From Candidatus Omnitrophota bacterium (GTDB lineage Bacteria > Omnitrophota > Gorgyraeia > Tantalellales > Tantalellaceae), in the NCBI GenBank assembly GCA_015231405.1, contig JADGBR010000009.1, positions 25,423 through 89,422 on the forward strand: a stretch of DNA of 64,000 nt, written 5' to 3'. Position 1 is the first letter of the stretch. Each line of letters starts with the position of its first letter. The notes under the pieces are model-generated. The model made no database searches. It was not told the origin of the DNA and saw only the letters and a program-made list of their open reading frames with translations. The translations under genes were made by a program, and so were the position numbers. Of the stretch, positions 3,201 to 29,100 are shown in pieces.

Positions 3201-6200
3201 TCATCTCCTCTATTATGTATTCCTCCCTCGTGGGATAAACCCCGGCACCCGGCTTAAAGATCTTTTTCATCATATCGCCTACAGGGTCACCGTCCTCGGC
3301 CAGAAATGCCATCTCAACATACCTGTCATATTCTTCCGATATTCTCACGCCCGCGTACAGGTCAATGTTCCACCTTATAGCCTCGTTGTAAAGAGTTCTG
3401 TTCCTCCTTATAAGATTCTCCGGAAGTATATTCTCGGGACGCGCCGTATATGTACCATCATCGTTCCTCTCCATTATCTCACGGGTAAGGCATCCGACCA
3501 GGTTCTTAACGCGTTCATATCCGGCTGAAACCGTCCAATAATGGAAGAGCTGGGGTTCATTGTCCTCGTCAAGTATCTCCCAGATCTCCGGCATGGCCTT
3601 AAGCCCTTCCTGGAAATCGACCAGCATATCCGTGTAAGCCATATTCGTCCCGCTGGGTTTTGATAAAGGCTGGTTCTGCTGGCCCGGCTGGTTCGGTATA
3701 GGCACAGGCTCTGGATGCGTCCTCACGCGCATTGGGTCCATGCCTATTGCCCTGGCCGCCTGCTCTCCGGACGGCACTATATTCATCGCGCCAAGCGTTA
3801 ACGGTATTATGGTCGCGAGCGAAACATTGAACCTGTCGGGCGGGTAATGCCCCTTGGTCACCGCGTGGTCTATACTCCGGGCGGCGCAGCTGGCGGCCGT
3901 CGGCCCGGGCATGGTAGGACGCATGACGTCGATATCCGTAGCCAGTTTCCTGGCCAGGTCCACCACCCCGTTATGTCCCAATTCGTCGTGAATGGCCCGG
4001 AGAATAGCCCTGTTATCAACAACCCCAGGGTCAGCGACAAAACCTGAATAATCAGGCATGCCATCCGCGCCGTTAAGGATACCCGTGCCCGCGAGCAGCC
4101 TCAGGGTCTCTTCCCTTAAAGGAGTGGGCGAAGTTCTGGTTCCTCTTAACCGCCTTATCACGCTGGCCAGAACGGCCGGACCCAGCGAAGAGTTCTTGTC
4201 CGCCCAGGTCGGGTTGTTGAAGAACTGCGGCGGTGTATCCAAAAGATTGAACAGGCTCATCACAAGTTTCACCTGATCGATCCCGTTCAGGTATACGTAA
4301 TGGTAATTCCTTATGGTCCTCCCTTCCGCCCCGGTCTCAGCCTCTTCCGGGGTCTGCGCTTCCACTCCGGCTATTGATTCCGCCACCTGATACTCGCTGT
4401 CGGTAACGAAAGTACGTGTCTCTTTCCAGAAGAACCCGTTCGATTTCAACCAGGGCTTGAGGAACATCGTCGAGATCATGAACGCCGTGCCGCCCGTCAC
4501 AAGGAACATCTTGAAACCCATATTGAGCCATGTCGCGCTTTTGTCTATACCTATCGACAACGGGCCCAGCGTCAGGACCTCAGGCAATAAAGGTATCACA
4601 AACCAGTATAAAGCATGGCTGATAGCCACCAGTATGCCTACCGCGACCAATACCGTCCTCCCATGCCTTTTCAGAACGGTCTCGAGCGCTGACAATGAAC
4701 CAAGCCTACCGTGCTCCACGCTTTCCCTGGCAGCTACATGAGCCCTGTTCCTTTTAGCGTCAAGCGGATCAACGAAACCCTTGATGTTCTCCAAGAGCAC
4801 CGCTGTCTCCCATAATTCGTACGGCACAGTATGGGCGAACAACTCCTTGCTCTCTCTTTTAGTACCAGAAGGCCAGGTCATAACCCTGCCCATCCGGTCT
4901 GTCTCGAGCCCTCCGGCATAGACACCCGACCCCGGCACAATGGCGTCATCGCCGAAGCCTGACAATACGAACCCCCCGGATGTTCCGGCGTTAACGTTAT
5001 TATCATCCTGATTGAACGACAGTTTCCGCCATCCGCCGCCGTTCTTTTCAGGGTACATGTCTTGCACGAGTATCCGCTTATACCGCATCTCGTCAACCAC
5101 CCATACACGCCATCTAAAGTCTGTTTCCCCGCCAGAATCGATCACATGCTCGGCGTCGCCTTTTAGAGCTTGTGCCTCTATTCTGGAGATCGTTATCGTA
5201 TCGAAAATAGCCTGGTACGCCGACAGGTCCGTGGTCAGGCTGTTCACGTCCGGGAGGGGCACTCGCATCGGGATGCCGACTATACTATCGGCCACAAGCT
5301 GTCTCATCCTCGATGTCACGGCGTCATCAGCGGCGTCGGGAGCGATAAGCTTTTTTAACGTTTTTTCGGCTTCGTCAAGATTGTCCAATACCATCTGCAT
5401 GGCCTCGGATTGCGCGCGAGCGTATATTAGCCTTTTCCGGGATACAGACCGGAGAACCTCGTCCCTCAGCCAGAAAAACATGGGAAACCACCGGCGTTCC
5501 AGAGACTTCCATTCTTTTTTGTTGACCGTAATCGTCTTTCTCTCGATCTTCGCCGGCCAGATAAGGCTTATCCCCATTATTATTATCCCTGTAAGCCATA
5601 GATTATTGTTCGGAAAATTCAGGATACCGGCTAACCCCATTGCCCATAACCCAAGAGCGGCTAGCCCCGTGACCATCACACAAAAAGCGGTCCCGGGCCT
5701 GGTGGATTTTCCGGTTTCCCACAAGAGCCAAATGGGTTTGGCCATATTTCCCATATCGGTGGCTTTCTTTGACCGCCTCCCGACATATTTATCTATTATT
5801 TTCACGACCTCGCCTACTCCTTTTTTCCGGGCCTCAAGATCTATCCCGGCCGCTCCAGGGACAGGTGCCGGAGCGGGTGCAGGTGCCCGTGCCGGCGGAA
5901 CTACGGGAGGCACAGGGTCACTATAGGGATGATCTTTACTCCACCGCCATTCGGTTATCTTACGTTTAATAAGCCCCACGCTGAATATTAAAAGCGCCGC
6001 GGCCAGACCGTAAATCGTCATATTCATCATGAAAACTTTCCTCGAGTTGACCTCGTCGGAAATATATGTCAAAGCACCCGGGCTATGGAGGTTAACCATC
6101 GTCACCGCCTGGTCAATTGCCTGGTCCCTCCTCAGGCTTTTCACCTTTTTCGCGTAAACTGTGTCTCCCTTCTCTACCGATACCGCCAGCTCGTAGAGTA

Positions 6201-9200
6201 TCGAATAGATCCTGTCAACGCTTTCTTCCGTTTTCCCGTCAAGATCGTACTTTTTCATTAAGACTTTCACCGCCGATTTAATTCTGTCGTTCCCGGCTAT
6301 TGCCCTTACCTCGCCCTTCAGATCCCCGTATCTCGAATTCGCGGTCTGATCGCCCCAGGCCAGAAGCTTGTATATGACCCGATCCACTTTGACATCCTTT
6401 TGATCCAGCCCCGCCAAGCTGGCTATCATCTCCCTGACAAAGAACACCGTCTCCAGCGCTTTCCTTATTTCGGGACTTTCGCTTGGATCAACTACCCCCT
6501 TGGCCATCATCATCTCATGAACGGCCGCCAACAGATCCTTATTATCATGGCGACCAAGATCGTTATCCGGGTCCATGCCGTTAAGAAAAGCCTGTATCAT
6601 AGAGCCGGCGGCTTCTTCCGGCATGACCTCGAACATGGTCTTTTTATTATCTCCGGGCACTAGCGCCGTTACTCCGTCGGGTACCTCTCCAAGTCTGATC
6701 CTTCTCCCTCCAACGACCATATCGACCCATCTCTCGGCGCTATCCACAAGAACCGTCCTTTCCACTCCTTCCGCTATCCTCTGGAGCGCCATCCCTTTTA
6801 TGAAAACGTCCCCGTCGAACGTGCTGGATGAGCCCCTGCCGATCGATATCCTTATACCGAGTTCGGATATCTTCCGCGGATCGACCTTTTTCTGGAACCC
6901 GGGCCTCACCCTCACCGTTATCCAATTCTCTCGGTTGTTCTCGCGGTTCCCCTCAGTTATGTTTATGGTGAATCCCGTACTCAGCTCGCTCTCTCCGGTC
7001 TTTATGTTCACCCAATTCCCTTCATGTCTCGCTTGATCGCCATACCAGCCTTTATTAGCGCATGACGCCTCCAGACCGTTGGATATTATCCTGTTTTCTC
7101 CCAGAAAGTCGACATCCCCCTCTTTGCCGTCGAACCTCAACTGATAAACGAATTCCCAGTTCCTCAGGTCAAGCGTCCCGTCAGGGTCTACTTTTAGTTC
7201 ATCGTGCGTATTTTCGGCGCCGGCTAATAATTCCGACAACGGCATGTACAACGAGGCGCAGCGGGTCTTCTCGCTCCCACCTATCCGCACATGATATCTC
7301 AGCACGCCTCGGTTCGCCTGGGGATCCCACCCCGGGACCTGTTCCATATTGTCCATGTTTCCGGGTCCGGCTTCGCTAAAACCCTTTAATTCGGTCCGGT
7401 CCGTATATACCGCCGAATCGAAATATGGTATGGGGGTCTTAATACCGCGCCACGCGACGAGACTGGCGAGTTCGCTGTTTATCTGATAGTATTTATCGTC
7501 GGCTATTTCCCTGCTTATTTTGCCTTCCTTGACAGCCTCATCCAGTATATTCCCTATGGCGATCATCTTCGCCGTCACTATGAACGGCGCGGAAAGTTTC
7601 ACTTTGCGCCATTGCTTCATGACGTAGTCCTCGCTCTCCCCTTCGTACATCGCCCTGAAAGCTCCGTCCGGTTCTTCCCTGCCCATCATATTTATCTCTT
7701 CGCTCACCCATCCCTTGAGATAATCGACATCCCAGTTATTCTTCAGCTGCTCGATAAGGTAGTTCAATACCGCGGCGTACGAATGCCCTTCAGCATACTG
7801 AACGAGGCCAAGAAGAGCCAGGGGAGCCCTTACCAGATACTGGATCTCGGTCCGTTTCACCCCTTCGGACACCTCCGAGCTTATGATCTTATATATCTCT
7901 ACTACTTCGTAACGGTCGATCTCGGTCACCTTCCTCCCATCCCTTTCCGTATCCCTCGTCGACCCCTTTATTTTTATCCGGATGTCCGGAGAGATCAGGG
8001 AAACCCCGTAAAAATATCCGGATCTCCCCGGAACACAGTCTCCGGGAACGCTTATACTGAATTTTTTCCCGTCATGCTCAATAACGCAGAAATACTTAAC
8101 CACTATCTCTCGCGATGTATCTGCGGCCAACCCGTTAAAGTCAACACCCTCAACCTCACATTCCGGATCGGCTTCCATTTTCCCTCTGGCGACCCTTATC
8201 CTGAAAATTTTCCCTTTATCGGGCGAATTGTCGTCGTCGATACGCATGTACGCCGTTTTTGGGTCGTTAGGATCATCGTAAGCGAATGTCTCCAGCCATC
8301 TCTCTTCACCCTGAGAGAGCCCTTCCGGCGAATACGTGATGCCGAAAATACCTCCCAGTATCTTCTTATCTCCTCCGGGAACGGGCGTCATTACATCCCG
8401 GAACTTCTTGAGAGGGGTAATTCCTTCTATATCGGTGCCTTTAAGCACCGCCCTTACTTTCATTTTCACCCCGGGTTCGTTGACACTCGAGCCAAAGAAC
8501 TCGCTCTCCCTGTCGTGAGGGGCATCGGCAGGAATTACGAACCTATACTTTTTTCCCGCGACCGTGTGCGGCTTAAAATATCTGACCGCCTTTTCACCCG
8601 AAGCGTCAACCTCACCGTTACCTTTAAATACAACTCCCGTGACCTCTCTTTCGGCCTCCGGCTCCATTTTCCTGCCCAGGACATCAATGCGGAATATCTT
8701 ACCTTTATCGGGGGATAACTCATCGCTGACAATGACATATGCTTTGGAAGGATCCGCCGTATTGTCATAACCGAATTTCCTGAGCTCCTTAGCCGTGCCG
8801 GAGACACTGCCGTCGAGCGCGTATGTCAATCCCGAGAATTCCCCTATCGTGAGGGTCTTCTCATCGCCTTCTTTTTCCGGGAAGAACAGAGCGGCGAAAG
8901 TGGTCTTACCCGCCTCCATGGTGTACTGGATCTTCGGGTCCCTGATATCGTCATACCCGATCCATTTAATGACCGCGTCCTTATCGGGCGTGCCTTTAAC
9001 CATGCTTGTCACGCCGTCCGTCTCAAAAAGAGACAGCTCTCTTATGACAAGCCCCGTCTTACCGGCATTCATATCGTAAAATGCGAGATAATAACTCCCG
9101 GTCTCCTTGTCCTCTATGAACTGGAGGGTAAGATCGGCGTTATAGCCGTAGTTGACAAGAACATCCCCCTCGTCTTTCACCTCACCCTCTTCCAGCTCGG

Positions 9201-12200
9201 CTGAGGCGAGTTTTTTTATGGTTATTGGCTTACCGTCCACGAGGATATACACGAACACCTCGCCGGCCTTCACCTTATTCGCTTCGACCTCGGGGGAACC
9301 CGTTCCGTATTTTTTGTAGTAGTGTATTACCTCCAAGCCGTCCTTGGCCATTTTCTTCGCCGCGAATTGATAGATCACCTTCCTGTCAACGTCCTTGACC
9401 CCGCCTTTCCCGTCAAGCTCAACGCCTTTTAACTGGGCGATCACCGGCCCGCCGAAGGAAGACGACAGAAAAACGTCTCCGGCGGCATTCTTCCCCTGGA
9501 TAACCTCGGGAGAATTCGCCGTCATTTCCTTGTAATAACCGGATGCGTCCCATCCATAAAGGTATATTGTCTTCTCAACCGACTCCACGGTCCCGTCAGG
9601 TTTGATCTTCACGCCCGCGCATTTCCTTATAAGTGAACTCTCGTCGTCCTTGTCCAGATATACGAAAGCTTCTCCTTCCCGGATCGAAGCGTCCGGCCCG
9701 AGGACATACGGGGATCGCGCGCCGTGGACAACTAAGAACAGTTTTCCGTCCGGGCTCTTCGCGAAAAGATACATCGTCTCTTCATTTATCCCTATACATT
9801 CCTTCCAGTCCTTTGTCGGGTCGTAATACACCTCGGCTATTGTCCGGCCGGGGACCAACACGTCCGGCTGGTACATTTTATAGATGGGCCTCGCCTCCGG
9901 CTTATGTTCCCGATCGGTCTTTTTGTCGATGAACTCATGCCTGTATATGTAAGGCGAAGCTTCGGCCTGTCTATATTCGGCTACAAGTACGCCGAGCCCG
10001 TCGGGAAGGACCCTATTGACGCTGTTCATCTTCATGTTGTATCTTTCCGCGGATAGTTTCGTGAATTTTTCGTCCACCATAAGGAGGTTGTCGTGTTCCT
10101 TTACGACGATATCATAAACGTACCAGACTTTGTCTCCGCTCATACGTTCACAGCGTTTAACGGGTATCCCGCTCGGGCCGTTTATGTACGTGACCTCTAT
10201 CTTCTTCGCCTCTTTTGTACCGTCGGCGTAGGTTATTTCTACCTTTCTGTTATGGACAAGGCCCGTCACGACGTCTTCCTCATAATCAACAAGAGTTATT
10301 CTTCTTATCTCTTTTGCCGCGGCGCCTCTTCGTACGGCAGGGATACCCGCCGCTCCACCGGCGGGAGGGACCCCTATGACCGGTGTTCCCGGCACCCTGA
10401 CCGCTCCCGGAGCCGGCTTCAGCGCGGGAGCCGGCGCTCTACCCCCGGTGGCTTGTCTTAAAACCGCCCGGAGCGATCCCAGCCACGCCTCCCTTTCGTC
10501 TTCGTTCCTCCACGTACGGTCATCGAGCCCGGTGTTCCAATTCCATACCGCTATCCCTTCGATACCGTTATCCGATGCGAGGCTCAAATACTCATCTATT
10601 CCGGTCGGATCCGAACCCGCCGCGGTCGAAAGCTCCTCGATCCTTACGGGAACTCCCTCGTCCTTGAATGTTTTTATCGTCGCCAGGAGCGCCGCCCTCG
10701 CCTCCCTCCCGAACCTGTCGGCGTAATGGTGTATGGCCGCGTAATCCAGCATCCTCACTTCCTCGCCGTTCACCGTTCCCGTCCGTTTAAAAAGTGCGGC
10801 GATAAGGTCGATATATTCCGAGGTCCCTTCCTTTTCGGTATTAACGCTCATCGTAATAAGCTTGCCGGGGGCCAGTTCTCTGATGGTTGCGGCCACTTTC
10901 CCGGCGTATCTCTCAAAAAGGTTTACAGGAAGCTTCGTTTGTTCTATCTCGTTGAACAGGTCGAACCCTTTAAGGGCTTTATGCCCGCCAAACTCACGAA
11001 GGAACGGTTCAAGGAAATCCGAGACAAAAGCGTCAAGCGTCGCCTCGTCCTTCAAAAGCGCGTCCCTGCCGAAAATACGCACTCCTTTGTCGTTCTTCCC
11101 CGGGAACGCCGATTGGTGGTCCAGCACACAGAATTCTATTCGCATACCCAGGCTATCGGCAATGTCCAGGAGCGCTTTCATGTCTTCCTTGAACCTGATA
11201 TTCAGCCCATACGGTACCTTGAGCTTCCCGTTCTCGTCCAACAAAGCGCGCCCGTCGGCGACAAGGTTCATACGCACAAAAGTCATCCCGCTCTCTTTCA
11301 TCGCGGCGAGGTCCCTCCTTACTTCGACTGTATGCCTTGATATCCCGTTCCCGTTCTTATACCAGAGGGTCGTTCCGAAATTCTGGCCGTACCCCGCCGG
11401 CCCGTTATAATTCACCCCTACTTCAGGAAGAGCGGCGCCGGAAGCGGCGGGGGCCTGTAGCATAGCAACGGACATCTGGGGCATAAAGAGCCCTATGAGA
11501 CCCATCCCGAGGTTAACTCCGTTATCGAATTCCCTCCTAATAGAAGAGCGCCTAGCCTCCGACAGCATTTCCTCCGGGACATTTTCCGAAACACCTCTTC
11601 TCCCCGGGAAAGCCCTCATATCGAGGCCGGCACTCTTGTTCCAGAGATCCTCGATCCACGTGTTCCTGGCGGGCGACACCTCATGGCACCTGTCCCTGAA
11701 ATCATCTTTCCACGGCTTTTTAGTCACTTTCCCGGGAACAGACGGGTCATATTCGAGATCAACGGTCTCTACTACAATGAATTTTCCTTTATATACTATG
11801 CCGGTCGATATCTTCATGGGTTTACCTTTGAACCGGCTGGTCTTCGAATACTCGAATTTTTTGTATTCATACACCGTTGTCCCGTCCGGAAGCGTTACGG
11901 GTATCTTCTCGAGGTCCGTAACAACACTCCCGGTCTCCGCGTCTTTATGTTTGAAGAACTCATGAAGCCGGTTGGATTCAATGGTGTGGAACCTTGTGAA
12001 AAGAGTATGTATCTCGGCCGGAGACCCGGAACCGAGTATTATCTCCCGTTCATCCTTATCTCCCTCGTAATCGAACGAAGTGGTCTCGGTTTCGTCCACC
12101 CAGTTCATATCGTATTTGTGTTCTTTTTTGTTCACATGGTCGGGAATAATGTGCTGGCTGAGATATTCTATGGCGTAATCTATCGGGTTCTTCCCGTTCT

Positions 12201-15200
12201 CGTAATATCTCGGCAGGAAACCGTCATGGTCTCTCATGGCGTCGGCTATCTCGCCGAGTTTGGCTATGCCTTTGGCGACCTTAGCGTCAAATTCGCGTTT
12301 TTGGTCTTCGGTAGCGTTGTTATTAAGAATAGCCTTCCCCATCGTCTCCTCGCGTTTATAAACGTCCCGGACGAGAAAAATCGCCTTGTAAAGCATCTTT
12401 TCGTACATGCGGCGCCTTAAAAGCATCTCCTCGCGTTTATGTTTTGCGTCCCAGAACTCCTGGTCGGATCCCACGCCTTCCGCTTCGACGGCCCTCATCC
12501 CCTCGCCGTCGGGCATATACCTCAAATACTCATCGTATGGCAGCCCGAATTTATCCTCGGCCAATTTCGCCGCTTCGAGCATGTGTTTCCTGAACAGTTC
12601 GAGGAGTTTAATGTCGATCTGGTTGCTTGTCATGAAAGCCTTCAGACCCATAAGGGTATAAAGGTCGTCCTCGTAAGCGACCCTTTTCTGTTTCGTGTAC
12701 ATACCGCTATCTTTGAAAGCCGCGGAAAAAGGCTGGGTTCCGTCAAGGTTAAGGGGCGCCGCTGTGACAGGGGGCCTGAAATTATTGATATCCTCGAGAT
12801 GCTCGGTACCGAAACTCGCGTCCCACTTTACCGCGTTCGGGCTGTACTGCCTGAAAAGTCTCATCCCTATGTTATACCAGCCTTCTTCGACGAATCCGTC
12901 TATGGTCCTCACATAATGAGCCCCGATATGCTCGCGCCTCAATAACCCCTTCATAGTCGGCGTCAGTTCCCCTATCCCCTCCATAGCCACAAGAGCGTCT
13001 ATGAACTTCCTGGAAAGACTCCTCGGCATGGCGGCTTCCATCTCTTTCTGCCATCTCATATAATCTTCTCTGTTCCTGACCTTTAAAAGATCGTTCTCGC
13101 ATTTTTTCTCCCATTCCCTCATCTCCCGTTCATCAGTGGTCTGCCACTTGCGGTCCATGGCGATATTTACCCTAAAAAGGAGGGTTTTCCTAGCCGAAGC
13201 GAGCATCTCTAGCCTCTTCTGGAGCTCGCCGGCGAGTTTCTCGTTCTTTTCATCCACCGCTTTCTTTATTCGGACCTTTAGTTCTTCTATATCCGCCTTC
13301 AATTTCTCGGCCTCCTTCCTCTCCTTTAAACCCCCGAAATACGCCGAGAATTTTTTTACTTCTTCCCAATCCCTGGAAGTCATGACACCGGGCTTTAAAC
13401 CCTTCACCCGGTAATATTCGTTCCGTGACTGGAGGTATAAAAGCTCTCCAAGTTTGTTCCCGAAATCCTTGTCGATGGCCGATAGCTCGGCGTTCTCGGC
13501 GCTTGAAAGGAGACCCGAGGCGAAAGTCCCGAGATAATGATGCGGCGGAACTATCTCAGCCGCTATTGTAGTTGCCATTTCGGCCATTTTCCTCGTATTG
13601 AAACCTCTCGACGGATTCATCTTTATATAATCCGAAAGGAACCTGTTCCACCTTTCTCTCGAAAGTTTGGACGCCGCGTCCTTGTTGAATACCTGCATCG
13701 CGGCGATCAGATAATCGACGTCCTCGGCGTTGACAGGAACATTCGGGAGTTTCGGAACTATTTTTCCCCCGGCCGCCATGACCCCTAGCTCCCTTGCTTT
13801 TTTCACCTGAAGCGCCGTCAGTTGTTCCTTCCTATCCGCCGGAAGCGAAGCTATCTTACCCCGAAGGTATTCAGTCACCGCAGCCAGCCATTTTTCGTTC
13901 ATCCTATTGTCCTTAACTTGAAGCATCTTCTCGAGCTCCTCCAGCCTGAAGGCTTTTTTCGTGGCGGCATCAAGAAACTCATTCATCGCGGCCATGGCCG
14001 CCTCTATCTTTCCTATCGCCTCCTTGGCTCGCTCCTCCTGGTTTATTTTTTTGGCGTTAAGCTCGGTTATTACCGCCTTGAGCCATGGGATATTAAGCTT
14101 GTTAGCGCCAAGAGCGTTCCTCCTTGCCTCGACAATGTCCCTGTCTACACCGGCCGGAAGCGTTTTTTCCAGATGGGCTATAAGTTCTTCGGCCTTTTTC
14201 TGGACTGCTTCAAGCTCTTTTTTAGCGAGTTCGTCCGAAAGCATCTTAACTGCTTTTTCCATCTCATCCCTTTTACCCTTAAGGCCCCTTATCCACTCGG
14301 TCCATGTATCAGTCTGTTCCTTGGGATAAAATTTTTTCAGACCTGAGATCAGACGGGCGGCGTCGGCTACCAGCCCTTTTGTATCGTCTACCCCAAGTTT
14401 GTCCTCGGCTTTGACTTTCGCCGCTTGAGTCGCTTGGACCTTATCTTTAAGGGCGAGACTTGAAAGAGTCCCTTCAAGCCTTATTTTTATGGTATCTATG
14501 GGAGTTTTGCCCACGGCGTCCTCTAGTGCCGCTATTTCGGACGCCGAATAGGGCCGCCCCGCGAGTTCCCTCTCCTTTTTCATTGCAGCCACATAGGCCC
14601 GCCTTATTCCCTCCTGCGAACTCGCGAAACTCAGTCTCTTTTCCCTAATTATCGCCTCAGCGTCGAGAAGGGCCTTATCCGACGTTCTAATGAATTCCCG
14701 GATAGCTTCATCGTCCTCATGTTTTACCCAGTCCTCTATCTTCCTGCCGCGTCCGATTATCCCGCCGACACCCTCTGCTCCAAGCTTATTGCCGCTAACT
14801 ACGGCTTTTTTCTCCAGGTCCAGCCTCTGCCTGACGGCGTTCTCAGCTACCGTAACCGCCACTTTCAGCTTGTCCTTATCCGTGAATTTTCCGGCTTCCG
14901 TTTCCAGGGCCAGCCGTGCCTCATCCGTGCATCCGGGGATAAGAGCGGCTCTTGCTTCTACCCATCGCCTGACTAGCGGCCTCATCTCCGCCTCAAATTG
15001 TTTCTGGGGGAGGCTCTCCTCGAGAGCTTTCGTCTCAGCCCTTCCTTTAATGAGCGTTTCTAATCCATTAACAGCCTCACGAAGCCTGTCATAGGTCATC
15101 TCGTCAGCTATTTTCTCAAGATCTTCCCGGCTCTTATCGCCGTAAAGATCATTAGCGTCGGGGGCAAGCTCGACGAATTTCTTAGCGAGAAAGGTTTTCC

Positions 15201-18200
15201 ACTGAACATTTGTCCGGAGCTTTCCGATCAATTCGTCCAGGAACGACGTCTCTTCGACCGGAGTTCTTGTCCTGGCGTTTTCGGCAAGGTATTTCATATA
15301 CTGTTCCACAGGTATTTTATGGATTTTCTCTACAAGAGCCGCCGCTTCATCCCGTTTAGCCTGGATCCCATTCATTATTCTTATTTCTTCTAAAAGCTCA
15401 TCCAGGCTCATGTTCAGAGATACGTCATAAACGGCACCGAACTCCTTGCCATATAGCCGTTCCTGTTTATCACGGTACTCTACTCTCGCCGCTTCCGCTC
15501 GCTCGACATTTTTTGCCAGTTCCCTTTCTTTATCCCGAAGGGACTTAAGGTCACGAAGCTCTCTGAATATTTTTTCCCCCAGTGCCTCATGTCCTTTCGG
15601 ATCCGTCTTTTTCAGGGATCCGGTTATGGATCTCTTGACCCTTTCCACAGAAAAATAATAAGTAATACCTTCTTCCAGTTCTTTCTTATCGAACCCCGCC
15701 GCTTTCTCTTCCAATTTCTCTTTTGTCGTATCGGGAAAAGCCGCCAGACCGCCTCTCACGAATGAGTGCCTGGCGATATCAGTTTCATGCTCGGTTATGG
15801 ACCTTTCCAGGCCATCCTTGTCCATTGTTTCATATACTCCCAGATCGGTCATCTTGAAATCGGCATGAGCTCTTACATGTTTATTCCTGGCGTCAGCCCT
15901 CAAGGCCTTCATCTCCTCGGTATCAGGAACGGCCTCTTTGACCCCTTCATCCGGCGGTCCCGCTCCCCCGGCGCCCTCAGGCTCCGGAGCAGCTTCTCCC
16001 AAGTCCGCCATAGCTAACATTTCATCGAAGACATCCTCTTCGACGCTGTCCGCCAGTTCCGTCGCCGCTTCCCGAGTTCCGTCGAGTGGAGCTAACGGGT
16101 CGGCCTCCGTGCTGACCGGTGTCACTACCGGCACAGCCAGTATGTCCGCGACCGTTACCTCTTTACCCTCCCATATCCTCCTAAAATTATCCCGGACCTG
16201 AGCCACCGCCCCTTCTTCATAAACGTGGCTCACATATCTCGAACTCGCCTGTTCCACCATACTCCCGGAGGCGATCGACGGGATAGCCATTATTATGCCG
16301 GCTTGCATTACAAGCTGGGTCATTTTCCGCGAATCCGCTATTACCCCCGCTATCTTCCCCGAAAATCCGGTCAACTCTTCGCCGCTGGCAAGGCGCCTTA
16401 CAAGCCCTTTCCTGTACGAAATGATGGCCATGACAATTCCGGCCACGGTAAGGATGAAAGCGCCAACGCTCCCGGCCAAAACCGCGATCGAAGTCCCCAG
16501 GGCCATTGTTTTAGCGACCCCTGTGACCGTTCCGAGAATAGCCGCTAAGCCTAAAGCCCCGAGAACCAGCATCCTCACGTCAACCGCTCCTGACCACACC
16601 ATGCGTTTCCCGACGCCCAACAATTTGCTCCCGCCGAAAGTTTTGTGCTCAATTTCAGAAAAACGCGCCGAAACATAGGGTAGGCCGACGAGATAGAGAA
16701 GCGCGAGAGTGAACGTCACTATAGAACCCAAAAGCATTACGAGGCTTACAGCGCCGATGAACTGTCCGGTATAAATGGCCGTGCCGTAGAGAAGGGCTAC
16801 AGCTACGCCTGAAGCGAGGAGCCCCTCGGCCCTTTTCAGCCTGGCCGCGCTTGAATCCTCGAGCACTCTGTCGTACTGGCTCCTTTCCAACTCCCTTATC
16901 CCTATTCCGATCAAAGTTATCGCGCCGGCGCCGATCATAAGGCCGGGAACATTCGTGAACATAAAGAGAAGCGCTATCCCCGAGATGACCGTCATACCTG
17001 TCGTAAGAGCGGAAAAGAACCTTTTCATATCATCCGTTTTAACTAGTTTCGGAGTTATGACTTCGCGCCGTGATATCATCCTCGCCTTGGCAACGGCCAA
17101 AATGATGGATGATATTACACCGGCACCGGCCATAAGCGCGATTAGAGGTAAAAGCACCGGGACCGCTCTCGGAAGTGCTACCGCCGATATCATGGCAAGG
17201 ACAGACCCTACGGGGGCGAACGACGACACCATAATTAAAGCCATAGCCGGGACCGCTTTCACCGCTCCCAGCCAATCCTTTGCATCCAGAGAGCCTTTCA
17301 AAACAAGCTCAATATTTTCTTTACCTTTATATATCTCGCCAAACTTGGCCACATGACTCCGGTAAATAGAAAAAGCCAGGAATATCAACCCTACAGCCGC
17401 CACCACCCACAGACAGGCAGGCATCACGGTGTATATATCCGTTATCAGGAATTTTACATGCCCGCTCATCGCAGTTTCGCCTATCCCACTACCATCCGAA
17501 ACAAAGCTCATGACGCTTGTGAGCTTCATGGCTAAATTCATTACCTGCCATGAAAGGGCTATTATCACGCCGCCGAAAACTAAGCCCGGAAGGACTTTAA
17601 GCACTCTTTTCCCTCTTTCAGCGGCCGTCTTTGGCTCGAGTTCGCGTTTCAACATATCGGATATACTCAGATCCTCTCCCCTCACTCCGGCCCCTATCAA
17701 TATTTCCCTTGAAAGATCGGCGTTCATATAAGCCACGGCATATTTGAAAGCTTTTTCCGAAGCGCTACTGAACTCCCCGAAGACCTTTTCCTGGGACCTT
17801 GCGGCAACAGCCCTCCATCGGGCGTTCCTTACCTCAAGGCTGAGTCTGTGCTTGACCTCGGAAACCTTATCGAAATAATAGCTCGAAAAAGCGTTGTCCA
17901 TTATCTGTAAAAGCCCTTTACGAAAATCTGCCATATTGTTTTTCGCAACTTTAGCGGCTATAAGGTCTAAATCCTTTATTAAACTCTTTAGTTTCTGGTC
18001 GTTAAAACGCCCCTCGACTACCGCGGCCCGAATATCCAGAAATGCAGCTTTTCTGGCCTCAACCTCGGCCTCAAAACGCGCTTCCTCGCCGAACCCTCGT
18101 ATCCTTGAATCCATTATCGCCCTTCTTATCGAGCCGATAAGGCTTTCGACCTGGCCGGGCCTTATCCCTACCTTCGATGCTATGAACCCTGACTCAGGTT

Positions 18201-21200
18201 GACCGTTGAACAATTTCCCGAGCGACGCTCGCGCGGTCTTTACGCCGCTATCTTCTTTGTATTTCGCGAATATCGGATCGCCAAGCGACCAGTACGCCGT
18301 CCACCTGCCCATTTCTCCCGGTCGCCTCGCGACACGGCGCCTGAACTGAAGGTCGGTAGCCATAACCTCGTCAATATAGGTCGAGTACGCCGAGATGCCT
18401 TCCCTCGCGGATATGACGCCCCTTAGCGCGATATCCATGCCGCGGCTTCCGCGGTTGGACACGATCGTTATCATCCCGTCGTTTCCGCCTGTATCCTCTA
18501 TCCTTTTAATATCCGCGTCCGAACCGGACGCAAAAATATTTATCCGCTCCTTTGCGATAGCCGCGCCTAAAGCCTTCTCGATGCCTTTAATTATGACCTC
18601 TATCTCCCCGTCCATAGCCTTTATAAGGATAGGCGCGTTGCTATTGACCTTTTCCGCTATATCCCGTAACATGGCCTTTTCTTTTTCTTTTTCGTTACGG
18701 AATAACATTATTGTATCCTCGCCAAGGCTCATATATCTGTCCGGTATGACAGGCTCGACGACTTCCTTATTATGTACCCTCATCATGAACTCTTTGTCCA
18801 TAGTGCCGCTAGCGCCCGCAAAATCGGCGATAATGTCCCTATTTTGTAGAAATGACTGAAGCATGCTGACGTTCCGCGTGGCGTGTTCGAGGTTCACTTC
18901 AACATTCTCTTTAGCCTCTATCGCCGCGTGAAGGCCGAAAGACCATCTTCTTCCTTCCATTTCTTTTCCTTCGGTCGCGTCGATAAGCACAACCTCGCCG
19001 TTTTTTACCATGTAATCCCTGCCGCGTTTGTAACAAACGGCCGCGGTTAAAGCCTGCTCCACGAGATATTTCCAGCCGAGGAGATCATTATGATCAAGAT
19101 CGGTCTCGCCCACTTCCCCGGGGTTGGCCCTGAGTACATTCCTCAGGCATTCCTCGCCATCACCCGTCAACGTCACTGTTTGAGACGCGGCTTTGGAGAG
19201 ATCCACTAGTCCGGGCACGGTCTTGGCCCGCTTTATGATAAACTGGGCCATCTGTCGGGCCACGATAAAACTCTTTCTTATCTTTTCGGCTTCCTTTTTA
19301 TCCCCACCGGAAATGACAAAAGGCGTCATGATCTGGTATATGAGCGCGGAGTCCGCCTCGTCGAAAAGCGCGAACCATTTCCTGGCGGAGAAAGCTATTT
19401 CCCCTTTTTCGACAGCCAGTTCTTCGGATTGGCGCCTGTGCACGAATTTGTCGATCTTTCCGTAAATAATATTGGCTTTCCGATAAAGCTCCGTAGCCGG
19501 CACGGGATCCTTGCCCATTTTTCCCGTTAATGGATCATATAAATACCCTATATCCCGCCCTTCCTTATTCCGGCCCGCGGCGTACCCGCATACAAGCCCG
19601 AACGGCTCGAGCATCTTCGCCGCCGATTCCGCGTCCCTAGCCGCAAGGTCGTCGCTTGAGGTAACGACAAGAACGCCCTTGTCCATCGCGCTATATCCTT
19701 TTTTAACGGCCAGCATATAAGCACAGAGCCTGAGAGCAAGTGTCTTCCCGAATCCCATCGGTATCTGGTACATCTTCCCTTCCGCCATGTTTCTGGCCGC
19801 ATCCGCCTGTATGGCGAGTTTACCTATATCGGGAGTGCCGCCCGTAGCTTGAAACATGTCTATTTCCCGTTCGAGCATGATCCTCAGGTCTTTTTCCCTG
19901 CTTAACAGCTCGGTTTTAGTTATGTCAGCGTTCAATGGAATTATCGGGCTTCTCCCTAGGAGAGGATTAATAAAGGCTGACAGAAGGGTTGCGACCAGTA
20001 TAAGCCTGGCCACGATCCAGTTCTTTCTCGGAGCGGGCGCTTTCGTCAGATCCTGAGCCGGCTCTTCTTCCGGTACGGCGATCTCGAAGGTTTCGGCCAT
20101 AACGGGTTCCTCTATCGCGGCGGGGACAGCTCCATCGGAAGTATTCGGCTCAGGCGATATGGCCGCGACGGTCCCACTTTCGATTAGACTTGCATCCGGT
20201 ATATCCGCCGTAACAGGGGCCGGTGATCCTATCTCGGGATAGACCACGGCTTTAGCCTTTTCCGCTATGATCTCGCCGGCTCTATCGATCTTCCGCTGTC
20301 TTAAAGCGGCCAGCTCTTCCCTTATCGAATCCGGATCTTTAGCCATCCAGGCTTTAAGCTCAGTCACTCCGGGTTCTTCGACCTTTGGATGATCAGCGCC
20401 GAGTTCCGCGCCGTAGGTTCTTTCCATATGATCGTTGATCCCCTGTATCGTCCGAGCTGCAAGAAGCATCCTTTCGAACCTGGGCTTCCAGTTCCTGCCG
20501 AAAGACATGAGAGACCTACCCCTCCCCTTATAGATGTCTACCCCGGCATCGGAGAGCATATTTATCTGTTCCTTAAGGAATTCCAGGTCGAAATCCGAAG
20601 ATATGATCTTTTTGATCGCGGCCGTTTCTTTTATACCCAGCGCCCTGAATACGTCTTGTTTGGTCAGGGCTTCGGCAACCCAAAGTTTACGGACCATCAC
20701 AGTAATATCCTCTGTTACGTTCCCTGTGACTAGAAGTTTAGGGTGTTTCCTTATAATATACGCCTCGTCGGTCTTTGTGACATACCATTTGAGGCTGCTT
20801 TGTATCGACCGCGAGAACACCGTGCCCGAAGCCAATTCCTCTCGGGTAACAGTTGTTCCAAGCTTTTCACCCGCGTCCTCGACCGCTTTCAGGAAAAGCC
20901 CGAGAGCTTTCCTTAAAACGCCGTCAAAATTGGCGATATCGACGACATTGCCATGCCTTGTCCTCATTAAAGACAGCAAGGCGTCCTGATGGATCTTTCT
21001 CATGAGAAGAAAGTTATACACATCCTTGGTAGAAACGGCCGTCTCTTCGACTCGCGGATCGGCCATCCCCGAAGCTAAAACCAGGTGCCCGATCTCATGC
21101 CGTAGGGCCCATGCCACCGCCGGAGCGACGCACATGTACACATCTTTCCTTTTAAACCTGGTTATATTTTCAGCGACATATATCGCCTTCTCAAGGAACC

Positions 21201-23538
21201 TGGCGTCTATTTCGACAACACCCCTCACGGAGTCTATGCTCATAACTTTCTGTTTGACCGTTCCATATTTGATCTCTAAGGCCTTACCGGCGAGGAACAT
21301 CTTTTCTTCCGCGCTTAATAGGCCCATCATATCCCCGACAACGGCGATCATTTTAGCGTCGAGCCCTGTTCCGGACAGCGAGATCCGTCCTCTGTCGTCG
21401 AACCGGCCGCTAAAAACACTTGTGCCGGCTCCCTTAGCCATTGCTACAGCGTTACCCTGGCCGGCCGCCCGCGCTTTTAATTGCCCGTGCCTTTCTTTTT
21501 CTTTAGTCGCCATTGTCCTGAATATATATTCGTTCCCCTCCTTATCCAAAGCTATTTCATCGGGCGAACCCTTGTCATCGTTCGATATCGTAGCGGTGCG
21601 GCCGAGCGCGAAAACACTTATGCCCCCGAGATAAGCTGCGAAAATCTCCGGAGTTACCCGGGCCATTGCACCTTCCTCGCTATAGGCACGTTCATAAGCG
21701 CGGGCCCACTCCGCCTTGGCCTCTTTTATATCCTTTCCTTCCAGCACCGCCGCGCCAAGCGCGCGGTATATCGCCCTATTAATTTTTGCGAATTCCCCGT
21801 CCCACTGGTCGAAGAACGCCGCTAGCGCCAGTTGATACTTTCCCGACTCAAGCACCTTCTCATAATCGCTTTTTTTCTTAGTCAATATCGCGATGTACGG
21901 CCTTTCCTTTCCGGGACCGTATTTGGGAACGACAACGAGATACGACAACCCGTTCTTTTTCATCAGCGACGTAAGCCCTTCCGAATGGAACCCGCCGCTT
22001 ACAAGCGCCGCTATCTTTTCACCTTTCGACCTCATTTCCTTCAAAGTGTTATTGAAGAGGACCTTGTTCCTCTTTTCGGCGTCGATGTAGAACTTCATCG
22101 CTGTCCCGAGAGCGCCGAATATTTCGGCGAGGTCATAACCCTGAACTATTCCCGCTCCAAGCTCCCGGCAATTCCTGTTTATATACTCCGCCCATTCTTC
22201 GGGCTTTAACCTTCCGAGTGAGGCGTTAATGCGCCTGAACTCGGGCTCGCTTATCTCCATCTCATACAGCTGCAAGAGGAGCCTCGCGAGCTCAAGCTTC
22301 TCGAACACCTCGCGTTCCCTGGCGCTCTTCATCAGCTTATCCCCGAGACCCGATTCAAGGCCGGCTATCTCGGAGTAAAGCCCCAGAAAATTAATCGATT
22401 CGTAAACGCCGATGTACTCGTTGAATTTCATCATATTCGCGTACCCGCAGAGCGAAATGCCCGACCTATTCGAGAGGTCGACGAGATAACCATGGAATTC
22501 GCTTTGCGCAATTTTTTTCTGTTTAAAAGCGACGGACTTAAGGACCAGCGTCTCGAGGTCCGTCCGCCCTATGGCCTTTGAAAGCGCATTGATAAGGGCC
22601 AGACGTTCGATATTCGCCTTTTCAAAATTTATTAGCTCTTCAAGCTCTACTGCCCTTATCAATTTTGATATCTGGACATACGGTGAAATGTCATATCCTG
22701 ACTTTTCGATGACGGGATATAACGCCTTCCAATACTCCTTGAAGCCCATATCTCCTTTTCTGTGAAGGAAGGCGGCATTATCGACCGTACTCATGTCAGC
22801 CGATAATATCCTTTCCCCGATCCCGGATATCTGCTCAACCAGTTTTTCCAGCTGAAAGCTCAATTTTGCCCTTTCCTCGACGACAGCACGGAAACTTTCC
22901 ACATTCTCCATATACAGCTCATTATCTTCGATGCCGTATAGAGCGATCTTCTTATCGCTGATTATCTGATAGAACTCGCAAGCGCTCATTAACCCTTCAT
23001 TCATGAGATGAGCGGCGGTCTCCTCTTTGATCTTCTCGTCCGGGAAAGTTCTCAGTATAGATGTATCGATATATCCCGTTGATCCCTCGATGGCGACCAG
23101 TGAAAGGTCATAATCCGTAACCAGCTTATCGACGAGAGCCGCTATTGAATACTGGGCCTCTATAGATGAATGAGCGTCCTGAATATTGACTATCGTCTCG
23201 CCGCCAGCATTAAGCGCCCTTTCCTTTATACTAGAGAGATCGTCAGGCAGGGATATGTCATATTTTTCGCGCCTGTCGATCTCTCCCGTCACTTTCGACC
23301 CTGATACTACCCACACGGGTTTACCATTCTCTGTCCAGCCGATCTCATTTTCAACGAATATTACCGATAAAATAATGGATACGATCTTAATAAATTTTTG
23401 ATTCCGGGCTTTCCATGTGCTGATAAGTATATTGTCGTTCTCCTCATCTCTACCTTCGATAGGTTTATCATGGAAGGGAATATTGATCTTTGAAAAAAAG
23501 ATCTTCAGAAGCCCTTTCTTTTCACAAATTGTTTTCAT
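1..23538 (-). CDS. Giant multidomain membrane protein (gene D). At least 7846 codons lie in the window and the 3' end lies beyond the window start
   Basis: The start is ATG at 23536-23538 on the minus strand. An AAGGAAG Shine-Dalgarno sits 7 nt upstream and an in-frame TGA lies at 23566-23568. The frame (codon first bases at coordinates divisible by 3) stays open down to position 1. The ORF track omits it, presumably because there is no stop in the window; only short antisense plus-strand ORFs cover this span. Hand translation was checked at more than 15 sites. Motifs recovered include [22 protein letters not shown] (start), [10 protein letters not shown] at 23190-23160, [13 protein letters not shown] at 22002-21961, [91 protein letters not shown] and [21 protein letters not shown] at 186-121. 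Confidence 0.85.
   Translation of the reverse strand, partial: [7846 protein letters not shown]
7900..9300 (-). repeat. Tandem ~160-aa protein repeats in D (motif YD(D/N)xxDPxxAY...[10 protein letters not shown]). The same repeat begins the visible part of C
   Basis: Translation of 8760-8701 gives [20 protein letters not shown] and of 8280-8221 gives [20 protein letters not shown]. C residues 7-35 read YDDLRAPSFAYVRIRDPLSRDTGKIFRVDV. Confidence 0.55.
10550..11400 (-). other. Domain in D: clan GH-A (GH5-like) glycoside hydrolase (beta/alpha)8-barrel-like domain
   Basis: [40 protein letters not shown] (11340-11221) matches the GH5 strand-1/2 signature GFNxVR(I/L)P. [11 protein letters not shown] was found in translation of 11160-11101 (about 11145-11113). 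[11 protein letters not shown] at 10968-10936 matches the GH5 acid/base region (L/F)ELxNEP. AIHHY and IAVWNWN follow downstream as expected for the family. Confidence 0.5.
12900..16000 (-). other. Long Lys/Glu/Ala/Arg-rich alpha-helical region in D, a predicted coiled coil of about 1000 aa
   Basis: Translation of 14220-14161 gives [20 protein letters not shown] and of 13620-13561 gives [20 protein letters not shown]. There is heptad-like charge periodicity and almost no Gly/Pro runs. Confidence 0.45.
16300..17850 (-). other. Polytopic transmembrane block in D, about 515 aa with roughly 10-12 hydrophobic helices, immediately after the SecA-like core
   Basis: Translation of 17160-17101 gives [20 protein letters not shown]. 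The surrounding translation is dominated by 18-25-residue hydrophobic stretches separated by short charged loops. Confidence 0.5.
17660..20060 (-). other. Domain in D: SecA-like preprotein-translocase ATPase core (NBF1, NBF2 and helical scaffold-like region)
   Basis: Direct translation gives Walker A PMGFGKT (19761-19741), [24 protein letters not shown] (19374-19300) and [40 protein letters not shown] (19020-18901). It also gives [24 protein letters not shown] (18480-18421) and an arginine-finger segment [12 protein letters not shown]. These match in order the SecA signatures [85 protein letters not shown] and RGRSGRQGDPG. Confidence 0.7.
21085..21099 (-). other. HEIGH (HExGH) zinc-metalloprotease-type motif in D, in a hydrophobic context
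   Basis: Direct translation of 21120-21061 gives [20 protein letters not shown]. The motif fits the HExGH of M50/S2P-type or M48-type intramembrane zinc proteases. A carries HELAEH (not canonical) at a roughly comparable position. Confidence 0.3.
21979..23331 (-). other. Domain in D: conserved N-terminal domain shared with A and B. It is tentatively TIKI/TraB/GumN-like and follows a signal-anchor helix
   Basis: D residues ~70-520. The stretch [45 protein letters not shown] is about 75% identical to A residues 86-130. The second His motif GGFHSEG (D) corresponds to GGYHADG (A) and GGFHTGG (B), matching the G-x-x-H-x-x-G pattern described for the TIKI/TraB/GumN superfamily. The family assignment is tentative. 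Confidence 0.45.
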
Positions 23539-23639
23539 ATGACACTTCCTTTTTATTACCTTTATTCATTAAATGTTTTAATAAGTTTTTAATTATTTTT
23601 AGCCTTAATTTTTCCTTATTATTGGAATTTATAAGGTCA

Positions 23640-26150: not shown

Positions 26151-29100
26151 TCATGCGGAGATCAGAGCGCGCCTGTAACCTTCTATGGCTTCCCGAAGTT
26201 CCAAGTAGTCGATCTTAATGATCCTAGGAATGTATTTAAGAAGACCGCCCGCTATATTGAACCCGAAAAGCTTTTTATCTTTTAAATATGCCATGAATCT
26301 GTCGTTATCGAATTCGGAGTGTCCGATCGACGCCCAGTACGCGATAAAATTCAAAGCGGCGTCGTAGATCTCGCCGGTAGCGATGGCGGACGAATCATCT
26401 CCGTTCTTATACGCTATGACCCTTATATTTTCAGGAAGGGCATCTTCGGAACACATGGCGTCCGGGTCGAATACCGTTATGTATGTTTCAGCCGGAAATA
26501 GCTCTACGGCTATTGCAGCGGCAGTTCTGGCCTTAGCCTCATCAATTGTTAAAAGCTCTATATTCTCCTCTTTCAGATATTTTATTCCCATTTCCTTGAG
26601 GAGCTTCGCCTTCCCGGTTCTCCGCGATACCCGAACGAGCTGTTCTTCCCCGGCAGTTACCGGAGCGAGAACTATCCTGATATCATGTTTCGCTCCTCTT
26701 TTTCTATATGCCTCGGCTATCATTTTCAACTCTCCGAAGGTCCTTACTTTAACCATCAAAGCGTCCTTTCTTCCATCGGCCGTTTTTATCTCCCCGGCCA
26801 TATAATTTACGGCGTCTTTTGTAAGCGAATCCTGCGGCGTCGAGTCCGAACTTATTTCAGAGAAATTCATATTGTAAAGCCCGAGATCGTTAATGAGCGG
26901 CATTATTACCGGAAGGAACATCTTTTCCATTATTGAACTGACGCCCGCATATACTTCTTTGTATTTACCCAGCCGAAGGCTCGTGAACGGGGCGGTTCCA
27001 CCGTCTTTACCCCGCATTAGGGCGTCTAACGCCTCGCTTTTATCCAGGACTTCCATCCGCGCCTCATGTGTTTCCAACTGAGAGACGATCGCCTTTACCT
27101 GTTCGGACACTCCTCCCTTTACGCCGCTGAGCGCCTCAGCCTTGACTATGCCTGTCAAAGCTATTCCTCTGGCTTCGGCGATCTTCGAGATCGTATCGAT
27201 ATTCTTACTCGCGTCAAACGCATTCTGCGTCTCCGGAAGAACAATGAATACGAACTCATCCCTTGGGAACTTTGCCAGCTCCGCGTCTATATCGGCTTCC
27301 TCGAACCCCTGGAATTCCTCTATGCCTATCACGAACCTTTCCCTGACCGGTTTTATATCACCGATCTTTCCCGTTTCGGCCGCAAACCTGGCGTTAGCGA
27401 TGAACCTGGCCCATTGCCTCACGCTGAAAAAAGGATGTTCTCCGCCGGGAGTAAGAGCCGCGGCGAGCTTTTCGGGAAAGCCCGCTATCCTGGCGTCCCC
27501 GGCCGTAGCCTCCTCATCCTCCTCAATAAAGAAAATTATTTTTTCGCCGTCTTCCAGGTCAAGCTTGTTCCAGTTCGAAACAATTCCCGCATTACCTATA
27601 AATGTTTTTGACTTGATCCCTACCCTGATGAACAGCTTAGTATCGCCTTTACAATACCCGGCGCATAAATTTGCCAATGCCCTGCAATTACTTATGTCCC
27701 CGAAATCCAGTTTATTGCTCAACACGAACTTATACGAGATCTTTTTCATACCCAGGACCATATATGGCTTGATCTCATCAAGCAGCGCCCCGGCTCTTTC
27801 ACCCTCGGTCAGGATGAGCATTTCCCTGGATAAGCCCGTATTAATTTCCGAAACGCCGCCTTTATCGTATTTTTTTCCGTCATTTATGATCGCGAACCTC
27901 ACATCCGGATACTTTGGCAATATTTCCTCGACCGCTGCCGCAATATCCTTCCAATCGATCCCTTGGGGAGTAACGATCTTATCTGTCCCGGCTCCAACGG
28001 TAAAACCGTGTATGACCCTGATATCGCTTGCCTGTATCGTGGCTTCGGCGATAGGCGCGCCTTTTTCGCCGTAGACTCTCGGCTGATCCTCACCCTTCAC
28101 CCTGACCTCGAACGCCCTGGCATCGGTAGGTTCCGCCCCGGGATGTTCGCCAAGATACCCGTCATCAAGAACGCCGGCCAAAAAATCTATGAATTTCTCG
28201 ACGTCCGTCTTTGCGCCTTTGACATCAAACCCGACTTTACTGCCGCATTCCATGGCGTATTCCAATAGAACGAGCATGCTGTCGCATTCCATCGAAAGAC
28301 TAGTTCCGTCCTTTAATATCCCGTTCACTTTCATTTTTAATTTCAGCTCCATCAGCTTCCTTATTATAAGATCGCTCACTCGCATGTGCACTCCGTTAGG
28401 GGTCACTACCAAAAGTTCCAGCGGCACTTCGACCTCTCGTTCGTCACGGATCTCGGGCATTATAGGGCCAGCCGTCTCTTTCATCCCGCTGGCTTTGGCC
28501 GGGGAAGGCTCTTCCGCCCGAACATCCTCTACGGGTCTTCCCTCCAGTTTTCTTGAAACATTAGTCATGGATTCGGCCATCAGCCTGTTAAATTCGGGAG
28601 ATCCTCTCATCCTATCGAACCGCACACGGACTTTTTCAAGGATCTTCGCCTCTATTTCTTTATCGGGGATCCCCTCCCATCCTTTAAGAAGCTCAAAAAC
28701 ATTTTCGGCGCTGGTGAACCCTATGTTGGTCTTGACCTTAGTGATAAGTTCCGGGAGCACGCCCTGAAAGAGCGGTATCCCGTATTTCTTAAGGAAATAC
28801 ATGCTGAAAAAGAGCGTTTTGTCCAGTCTCGCGTAATCCCCGCATATCGAAACGGAAACGCCGTTTTCGGAAGCGGCCGCCATGACCTGATCGATCTTCT
28901 CCAACACGGTTTTATTGAAATCGGCGTCAGAAATATCCGTCCTGGGCTTACCGGAAACGGCGGAGGTCAGATCGTTAGATCCTACGCTAAGGAATTTCAG
29001 ACGTTTTCCTTCACCAAGGTCAAAAGTTAATATGTCACGTATGTCAGCCGCAGCTTCAAGCGTTTCTACCATTATACCTATCGCAAGCCCATCTATCCTG

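Follow-up and report, generated by a model that had tools for sequence, protein, structure and literature searches.

A SecA-like motor followed by a conserved, family-specific ten-helix membrane block in a giant protein of an Omnitrophota bacterium

Giant proteins of the Omnitrophota contain parts related to the secretion ATPase SecA. Most of these proteins carry divergent SecA DEAD and preprotein-binding domains without the scaffold/wing domain, and the same genomes encode a normal SecA and SecYEG elsewhere (West-Roberts et al., 10.1101/2023.11.21.568195). The SecA-like domains may help to export the giant protein itself, and the transmembrane (TM) regions were left out of structure prediction in that study (10.1101/2023.11.21.568195). 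A 20-protein SecA_DEAD architecture cluster was found among 916 long Omnitrophota proteins in a 2026 preprint (10.64898/2026.06.07.730766). How Omnitrophota proteins of tens of thousands of residues are exported or inserted is the open question behind this work. Here we analyze a 64-kb stretch of DNA from a Candidatus Omnitrophota bacterium (contig JADGBR010000009.1, referred to as the window), in which the giant open reading frame (ORF) D encodes a SecA-like motor and, directly after it, a block of ten membrane helices (Table 1). We favor, with a probability of roughly 0.55, the reading that this block is a base that fixes a SecA-like motor, acting in cis, at the membrane. Direct observation covers the anatomy and topology pattern of the region, the ATPase motifs, which are intact, the fact that motor and block strictly co-occur and the lack of a sequence relation of the block to SecY or to other families, whereas the docking role, the substrate and the route across the membrane are inferred.

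D belongs to an already described kind of protein, a SecA-like domain with adjacent TM regions in an Omnitrophota giant. It resembles the Archaeovorin type (10.1101/2023.11.21.568195) in being a giant ORF with many TM helices, with divergent SecA_DEAD and SecA_PP_bind domains and with no Pfam scaffold/wing domain. The published type contains methyltransferase, PGM/PMM and pyruvate-phosphate-dikinase-like domains, and in the window PGM/PMM, a phosphoenolpyruvate (PEP)-utilising enzyme and a methyltransferase are embedded in the neighboring giant genes. The nearest named relative of the D module, P0001, is from Candidatus Omnitrophica. One feature differs from the account of West-Roberts et al.: in D, a weak form of the scaffold and two-helix-finger region seems to persist, rather than being absent. 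What is new here, as judged from the family alignment, is that the membrane stretch beside the motor can be delimited as a conserved domain private to this family, consisting of ten helices and one additional segment with fixed loops. The block also appears to be always inherited with the motor and to mark the end of the conserved head of these proteins.

The canonical SecA–SecYEG complex (for example, PDB entry 3DIN) shares with D the NBD1, the preprotein cross-linking domain (PPXD) and NBD2 with intact ATPase motifs, together with a ten-helix membrane part whose ends and basic loops are cytoplasmic. However, in D the motor and the membrane part reside in one polypeptide, and the membrane part has no detectable relation to SecY. 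The loops on its periplasmic side are very short, SecE and SecG are not encoded nearby, and the NCBIfam SecA scores are far under the equivalog cutoffs. The accessory SecA2/SecY2 systems are similar in that they use a second, divergent SecA, and SecA2 models match D at 1e-29 to 1e-44. SecA2 is dedicated to particular large or unusual substrates and works beside the housekeeping Sec system. The channel of these systems is a recognisable SecY paralogue made from a separate gene, while the membrane domain of D is fused and not SecY-like by sequence. An export ATPase covalently tied to its own membrane domain is also present in ABC/PCAT type I exporters and in EssC/EccC of type VII secretion. D shares with these only the principle of an ATPase–membrane fusion, by analogy; their ATPase folds (ABC and FtsK-like) and membrane domains are unrelated, and no similarity was found.

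The motor of D consists of NBD1, into which the PPXD is inserted, and a second P-loop domain, NBD2. Walker A (GFGKT) is located at residues 1262–1266 and Walker B (FDEAD) at residues 1392–1396. Motif III is GASGT, motif V (SNRGSRGMD) occupies residues 1694–1702 and the arginine-rich motif VI (QFRRRVARR) residues 1731–1739. All five motifs are kept in all relatives that cover them, suggesting that the motor is probably active. SecA chains of the PDB match the D motor at about 1e-37. NCBIfam SecA and SecA2 models give 1e-29 to 1e-52, far under their cutoffs (for example, 179 bits for SecA compared with 814), and by sequence the motor is classed as a divergent SecA-like domain, not as an orthologue of SecA. 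The motor is followed by a helical linker. In hhalign, the alignment of eight module sequences is collinear with 42 canonical SecA sequences up to SecA position 841/856, with an overall E-value of 1e-63, and this includes the two-helix-finger region. The linker alone (residues 1785–1980) falls in the same SecA register, but with an E-value of only 0.07, and Pfam PF07516 (SecA_SW, the scaffold/wing domain) was not detected in D. The linker is a likely, if weakly supported, divergent SecA helical scaffold that includes the two-helix-finger region and in which the wing domain would be reduced.

The membrane block starts about 20–40 aa after the linker. Its helices were called by a Kyte–Doolittle (KD) hydropathy scan with a 19-aa window, together with the family alignment and the helix boundaries in AlphaFold2 models. 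The ten helices are arranged as five hairpins. The numbers of lysine and arginine residues in the successive loops of D are 7/2/6/1/7/0/5/0/6/1/7, and the same alternation is observed in every homologue (nine sequences including D). Loop lengths are nearly constant among homologues (33, 6, 17–25, 4–8, 24–32, 7, 36–37, 4–8 and mostly 29–31 aa). The loops rich in lysine and arginine are 17–39 aa long and those poor in these residues are 4–8 aa long, except for the first external loop of 20–30 aa. This loop between TM1 and TM2 is Gly/Ser-rich and is the only longer external loop. According to the positive-inside pattern, both ends of the block are predicted to be cytoplasmic, and the cytoplasmic location of the N-terminal end is consistent with the ATPase directly upstream; the C-terminal side is less certain, in view of the possible eleventh segment. 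The KD scan finds no other strong hydrophobic segment at residues 1194–1978 or 2430–5838. AT skew changes sign locally at the block, as expected from T-rich hydrophobic codons on the minus strand. The isolated position of the cluster, the alternation of lysine and arginine content, the constancy of loop lengths and the flip of AT skew argue that the membrane block is not a chance feature.

Conservation within the block is not uniform. It is highest in the basic TM2–TM3 loop, in the loop that follows TM8 and, most of all, beyond TM10. The TM2–TM3 loop has 33 aa and six lysine or arginine residues in most homologues (35–39 aa and 7–8 such residues in P0092 and P0093), and its mean column identity is 0.365. 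For the cytoplasmic loops and the segment after TM10 the mean column identity is 0.35–0.46, compared with 0.22 for the periplasmic loops, which are the least conserved class. The block as a whole shows about 31% mean column identity, whereas the motor core reaches about 46%. Within the helices of the block, no conserved polar column is seen. Eleven hhalign comparisons of hairpins or halves gave no significant internal duplication (best E-value 0.0034); no such signal is expected at the sequence level, and the repeat of SecY itself is invisible by sequence. No paralogue of the block was found elsewhere in the four giant proteins of the window.

A preliminary description of this DNA had placed a polytopic membrane block of about 515 aa, with 10–12 hydrophobic helices, directly after the SecA-like core and its helical-scaffold region, at window positions 16300–17850. 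The block is indeed there, on the minus strand, next to a core recognized by Pfam and by PDB SecA sequences, and the KD scan and the alignment resolve ten strong helices and one borderline segment. The length has to be corrected. The interval corresponds to D residues ~1897–2413, of which about 80 aa are helical linker, and the block itself is 400–450 aa long.

The segment after TM10 is only weakly hydrophobic, with a KD value of 1.45–1.75 in every homologue. No other part of the block is as well conserved; with 0.46, the mean column identity of this segment equals that of the SecA core. Candidate roles for it are those of an eleventh TM helix, an in-plane helix or a signal-like element inside the protein. 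Cleavage as an internal signal peptide was also considered, as a speculation prompted by the suggestive n-h-c layout. This idea is weakened by putative cleavage sites that are inconsistent among homologues and by a conservation far above that of usual signal peptides.

Motor and block appear to be inherited together. When the module was used as a query, one close relative was found, P0001, a 1,483-aa partial protein annotated as Candidatus Omnitrophica, with 44% identity over 98% of the query, membrane block included. All other matches were ordinary SecA proteins aligned with the motor part only. An exhaustive profile search with the block alone among 1.84 billion representative proteins returned five proteins at E≤0.001 (P0001 and P0090–P0093). 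Each of the five is a piece of a very long protein, with a SecA-like domain upstream in collinear arrangement. Metagenomes were also scanned at the DNA level for the Walker B motif of the giant type, FDEADxxLxY[QN]xx[TN]PF. Five loci were obtained, three of which (L002, L004 and L006) contain the complete motor-plus-block module; the other two end before the block. Motor and block are thus collinear in all eight relatives that cover both (P0001, P0090–93, L002, L004 and L006), at 19–44% identity, and the block was never seen without the motor among the representative proteins. By region, identity to D is 33–49% in the motor, 19–42% in the linker and 20–37% in the block. The eight are all fragments of giant proteins, and Candidatus Omnitrophica is the sole named source among them. 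These patterns point to motor and block being one inherited, lineage-specific module of Omnitrophota-type giant proteins.

Similarity among the giant proteins covers an N-terminal domain (D residues ~40–640) and the module (from residue ~1200), and there is none after it. It ends just past the post-TM10 segment, at D residues ~2456–2475. Since similarity stops right after the block, the module closes the conserved head and the variable part comes next. In L002 (plus strand), the variable part about 1,000 aa past the module (residues ~2280–2900) gives matches to GH88- and GH76-like glycoside hydrolases, which would fit the published idea of cell-wall degradation and an extracytoplasmic cargo. 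In D, nothing is recognisable in the 3,400 aa downstream of the block at Pfam E≤1.

E. coli SecY, analyzed in the same KD scan, also has ten helices with both ends inside, so the preliminary description was right in likening the helix number to that of SecY. It had also noted that no SecY signature is obvious by eye, and the profile methods agree. At E≤10, Pfam detects no SecY domain (PF00344) in the D block or in any of six family members, and only unrelated noise appears. No PDB sequence was matched at E≤10, neither by the family profile of the block nor by the D block alone. In hhalign, the comparison of the family with E. coli SecY gives a probability of 0.2% (P 0.28); the sole match is short and sets an external turn of the block against a loop that is cytoplasmic in SecY. 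No member of a widespread family was matched in the profile search of 1.84e9 proteins, which recovered the giant-protein family only. The loops are different as well. Four of the five external loops in the block have only 4–8 aa, compared with 11–35 aa in E. coli SecY. In SecY, the cytoplasmic TM6–TM7 and TM8–TM9 loops are long and conserved and bind SecA or the ribosome. The TM6–TM7 loop of the block has 24 aa and its TM8–TM9 loop 36 aa, and conservation peaks instead at the TM2–TM3 loop and in the post-TM10 region. SecY folds as an hourglass made of two halves of five helices each, with a lateral gate (TM2b/TM7) and a pore ring. AlphaFold2 models made with two and then six sequences have a mean predicted local distance difference test (pLDDT) score of 35.6 and 42.3 and a predicted template modelling (pTM) score of 0.22 and 0.29, as the alignments are too shallow. 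A Foldseek search of the PDB with the better model (pLDDT 42.3) gave a best E-value of 0.83 and TM-scores below 0.2, with no SecY, which is meaningless at such confidence. As judged from these comparisons, the block shares with SecY the topology class only, and homology of the block to SecY is not supported.

Canonical SecA is held at the membrane reversibly, via its amphipathic N-terminus and its contacts with SecY and lipids. In D, a membrane domain fused to the motor would take the place of these reversible contacts. The motor would probably dock on the conserved basic loops of the cytoplasmic side and on the segment after TM10, and the higher conservation of these elements relative to the periplasmic loops fits an interface facing a cytoplasmic motor. 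With its ATPase motifs and its preprotein clamp retained, the motor would work on a polypeptide. The most plausible substrate is the variable part that follows the module in the same giant protein, and this polypeptide would take its route through the cell's own SecYEG or along a path beside the block. Membrane tethering matters for the function of canonical SecA (PMC9418451), and adjacent TM regions have been proposed as the anchor of SecA-like domains (West-Roberts et al., 10.1101/2023.11.21.568195). If the block is only an anchor, it would still be an example of a SecA that can operate in cis while permanently tied to the membrane. The module, about 1,250 aa long (D residues ~1195–2440), is a concrete unit suited to modelling and expression.

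Several points weigh against the block being simply such a base. Anchoring needs one or two helices, and ten helices with constant loop lengths and about 31% column identity suggest that the block does more than tether. Whether the eleventh segment spans the membrane would decide if the 3,400 aa downstream lie inside or outside. The AlphaFold2 models are of unusable quality, and the docking of the loops on the motor is pure inference. The statements on conservation are drawn from eight relatives, which is a small sample.

It is mainly because ten helices with fixed loops are kept where one would anchor that the idea of a channel stays alive. The block, possibly with the eleventh segment, would then be a protein-conducting channel analogous but not homologous to SecY, and through it the cis motor would drive either the cargo further along the polypeptide or other proteins. 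In favor of this, motor and block are always found together, and the block is never alone; its ten helices have both ends in the cytoplasm as in SecY, and helix number and loop lengths are conserved far past what an anchor needs. The sole longer periplasmic loop lies between TM1 and TM2, where SecY has its plug, the two-helix-finger region is possibly retained just before TM1, and variable cargo follows right after the module, in L002 including GH88/GH76-like domains expected outside the cell. However, neither SecY/Sec61 nor any other family of channels shows similarity to the block by sequence or profile, four of five periplasmic loops have just 4–8 aa, no polar column is conserved in the helices and the models (pLDDT 42.3, Foldseek best E-value 0.83) give no usable evidence on the fold. 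The window, which holds only the four giant ORFs and a broken IS66 element, encodes no partner resembling SecE or SecG, although one elsewhere in the genome is possible, and such genomes have a normal SecYEG that the motor could use (West-Roberts et al., 10.1101/2023.11.21.568195). We regard a self-contained translocon of this kind as rather doubtful. The preliminary description had pictured a fusion of motor and channel; the tight, conserved coupling of motor and block is in line with the two working together, but the specific reading as a channel has no positive evidence. If the block is a conduit, bacteria would have evolved a second and independent way of conducting proteins through their membrane. 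A stricter version, in which motor, private ten-helix domain and post-TM10 segment form a SecYEG-independent single-polypeptide translocon that threads its own downstream cargo, as a new channel class unrelated to SecY, is quite improbable; if true, it would explain how proteins of 10,000–100,000 aa cross the membrane.

Descent from SecY itself, by a motor–channel gene fusion that diverged past recognition, appears scarcely credible. Helix count, span and orientation match SecY, and the adjoining SecA-like domain is very divergent too (the NCBIfam score of 179 against 814 bits; long branches in West-Roberts et al., 10.1101/2023.11.21.568195). But tools of the same kinds that still recognize the SecA part, at 1e-20 to 1e-63, give no score at all for the block against SecY. 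The single hhalign match (P 0.28) joins a periplasmic turn to a cytoplasmic SecY loop, the conserved motifs lie in the TM2–TM3 loop and after TM10 and not in the equivalents of SecY C4/C5, and a 5+5 internal repeat was not detected, the repeat of SecY also being invisible by sequence. A block functionally independent of the motor is unlikely as well. It would be one of many membrane pins of the giant protein or a small-molecule transporter, and its adjacency to the motor would be architectural. D and its paralogue A do have about 15 further hydrophobic helices elsewhere, and dozens to more than 100 TM helices occur per giant protein (West-Roberts et al., 10.1101/2023.11.21.568195; preprint 10.64898/2026.06.07.730766). 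Unlike other TM clusters, however, the block is conserved with the motor in eight of eight relatives down to 19% identity and never separated. It resembles no transporter family, and a coupling site would call for charged or polar residues in the membrane core, where none is conserved.

Table 1. Features of the motor–membrane module and of the giant ORFs in the window
Feature	D residues	Window position (strand)	Remarks
NBD1, SecA DEAD-like motor	1242-1584	18787..19815 (-)	Pfam PF07517 (SecA_DEAD), 7.9e-20
PPXD, inserted in NBD1	1450-1541	18916..19191 (-)	Pfam PF01043 (SecA_PP_bind), 3e-17 / 5.9e-18 in two scans
NBD2, second P-loop domain	1611-1711	18406..18708 (-)	Pfam PF21090 (P-loop_SecA), 3.8e-07, 30.4 bits vs cutoff 27, region scanned alone
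Helical linker	1760-1960	17659..18261 (-)	hhalign to canonical SecA; weak assignment
Ten-helix membrane block	1979-2375	16414..17604 (-)	KD scan, positive-inside alternation, loop-length constancy
TM1-TM5 (approximate)	1982-2004, 2034-2058, 2092-2122, 2129-2151, 2174-2194		
TM6-TM10 (approximate)	2199-2215, 2240-2258, 2266-2286, 2323-2342, 2351-2374		
TM2-TM3 cytoplasmic loop, basic, conserved	2059-2091	17266..17364 (-)	Motif V-K-K-F-S-Q-x-Y-K-G-Q
Weakly hydrophobic segment after TM10	2406-2428	16255..16323 (-)	Consensus (D)SRKMxQxxMQSAxLAxAGPSLGAGA
Upstream hydrophobic helix	1175-1193	19960..20016 (-)	KD 2.0-2.26; just before the SecA-like core
Giant ORF D		1..23538 (-)	At least 7,846 aa; ATG at 23538; C-terminus past left window edge; hosts the module
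Giant ORF C		26151..34625 (-)	2,824 aa
Giant ORF B		34698..46808 (-)	4,036 aa
Giant ORF A		46971..63980 and beyond (-)	At least 5,669 aa

The part of D upstream of the motor is less well defined, and residues 1–1200 give no Pfam or NCBIfam match. A hydrophobic helix at residues 1175–1193 may be an N-terminal tether in D. It has no counterpart in L004, L005 and L006, each of which has one N-terminal hydrophobic segment, and because it is not conserved there, it is not a defining part of the module. A 'double tether', with a TM helix on either side of the motor, was dropped for the same absence. Further upstream, D shares an N-terminal domain (window ~21700–23250, D residues ~100–610) with the N-termini of B and C, with the motifs IVNIQDAHSS, EGSxGxID and GGFHSEGL. 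By eye these motifs recall a Tiki/TraB/ChaN-type fold, which we take as a lead only, with no library match. With the helix at residues 1175–1193 present in D and absent from L004, L005 and L006, the homologous N-terminal domain would be predicted on opposite membrane sides in different family members, a topology paradox; a comparable one was noted by West-Roberts et al. (10.1101/2023.11.21.568195). Between this domain and the SecA-like core, D contains an HExxH motif (HEIGH, window 21085–21099, residues 814–818), which could be a zinc-protease site.

The minus strand of the window carries four very long open frames, D, C, B and A, arranged head-to-tail in a stop-codon scan. The stop-free frame that contains D extends over window positions 1..23565, and the first ATG is at 23538. 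On the plus strand, the Table-11 ORF listing has short ORFs only at 10–22 kb, and GC skew is negative over the entire window. D has 25 strong hydrophobic segments. The N-terminal domain common to B, C and D is about 600 aa long with 27–41% identity, and A, C and D have a C-terminal region in common. Residues 2–2602 of A align with residues 5082–7635 of D (window ~630–8295) at 65% identity, including about 15 hydrophobic helices, and this stretch looks like a large recent segmental duplication between the two giant genes. The N-terminus of A lies outside the window and could contain another SecA-like module.

Enzyme domains are embedded in the other three giant proteins. C contains PEP-utilizers_C with a weak HPr match, B contains PGM/PMM I–III and CofD, and A (window 48981–63980) contains a guanylate kinase and an S-adenosylmethionine (SAM) methyltransferase. 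These enzymes are normally cytoplasmic and need ATP, PEP or SAM, which argues that large parts of the giant proteins are cytoplasmic. The gap between D and C is of low GC content (0.45, compared with about 0.52) and holds a broken IS66-family transposase gene at window 24066–25427 on the minus strand. This remnant consists of at least two ORFs, each aligned to a different half of Pfam DDE_Tnp_IS66.

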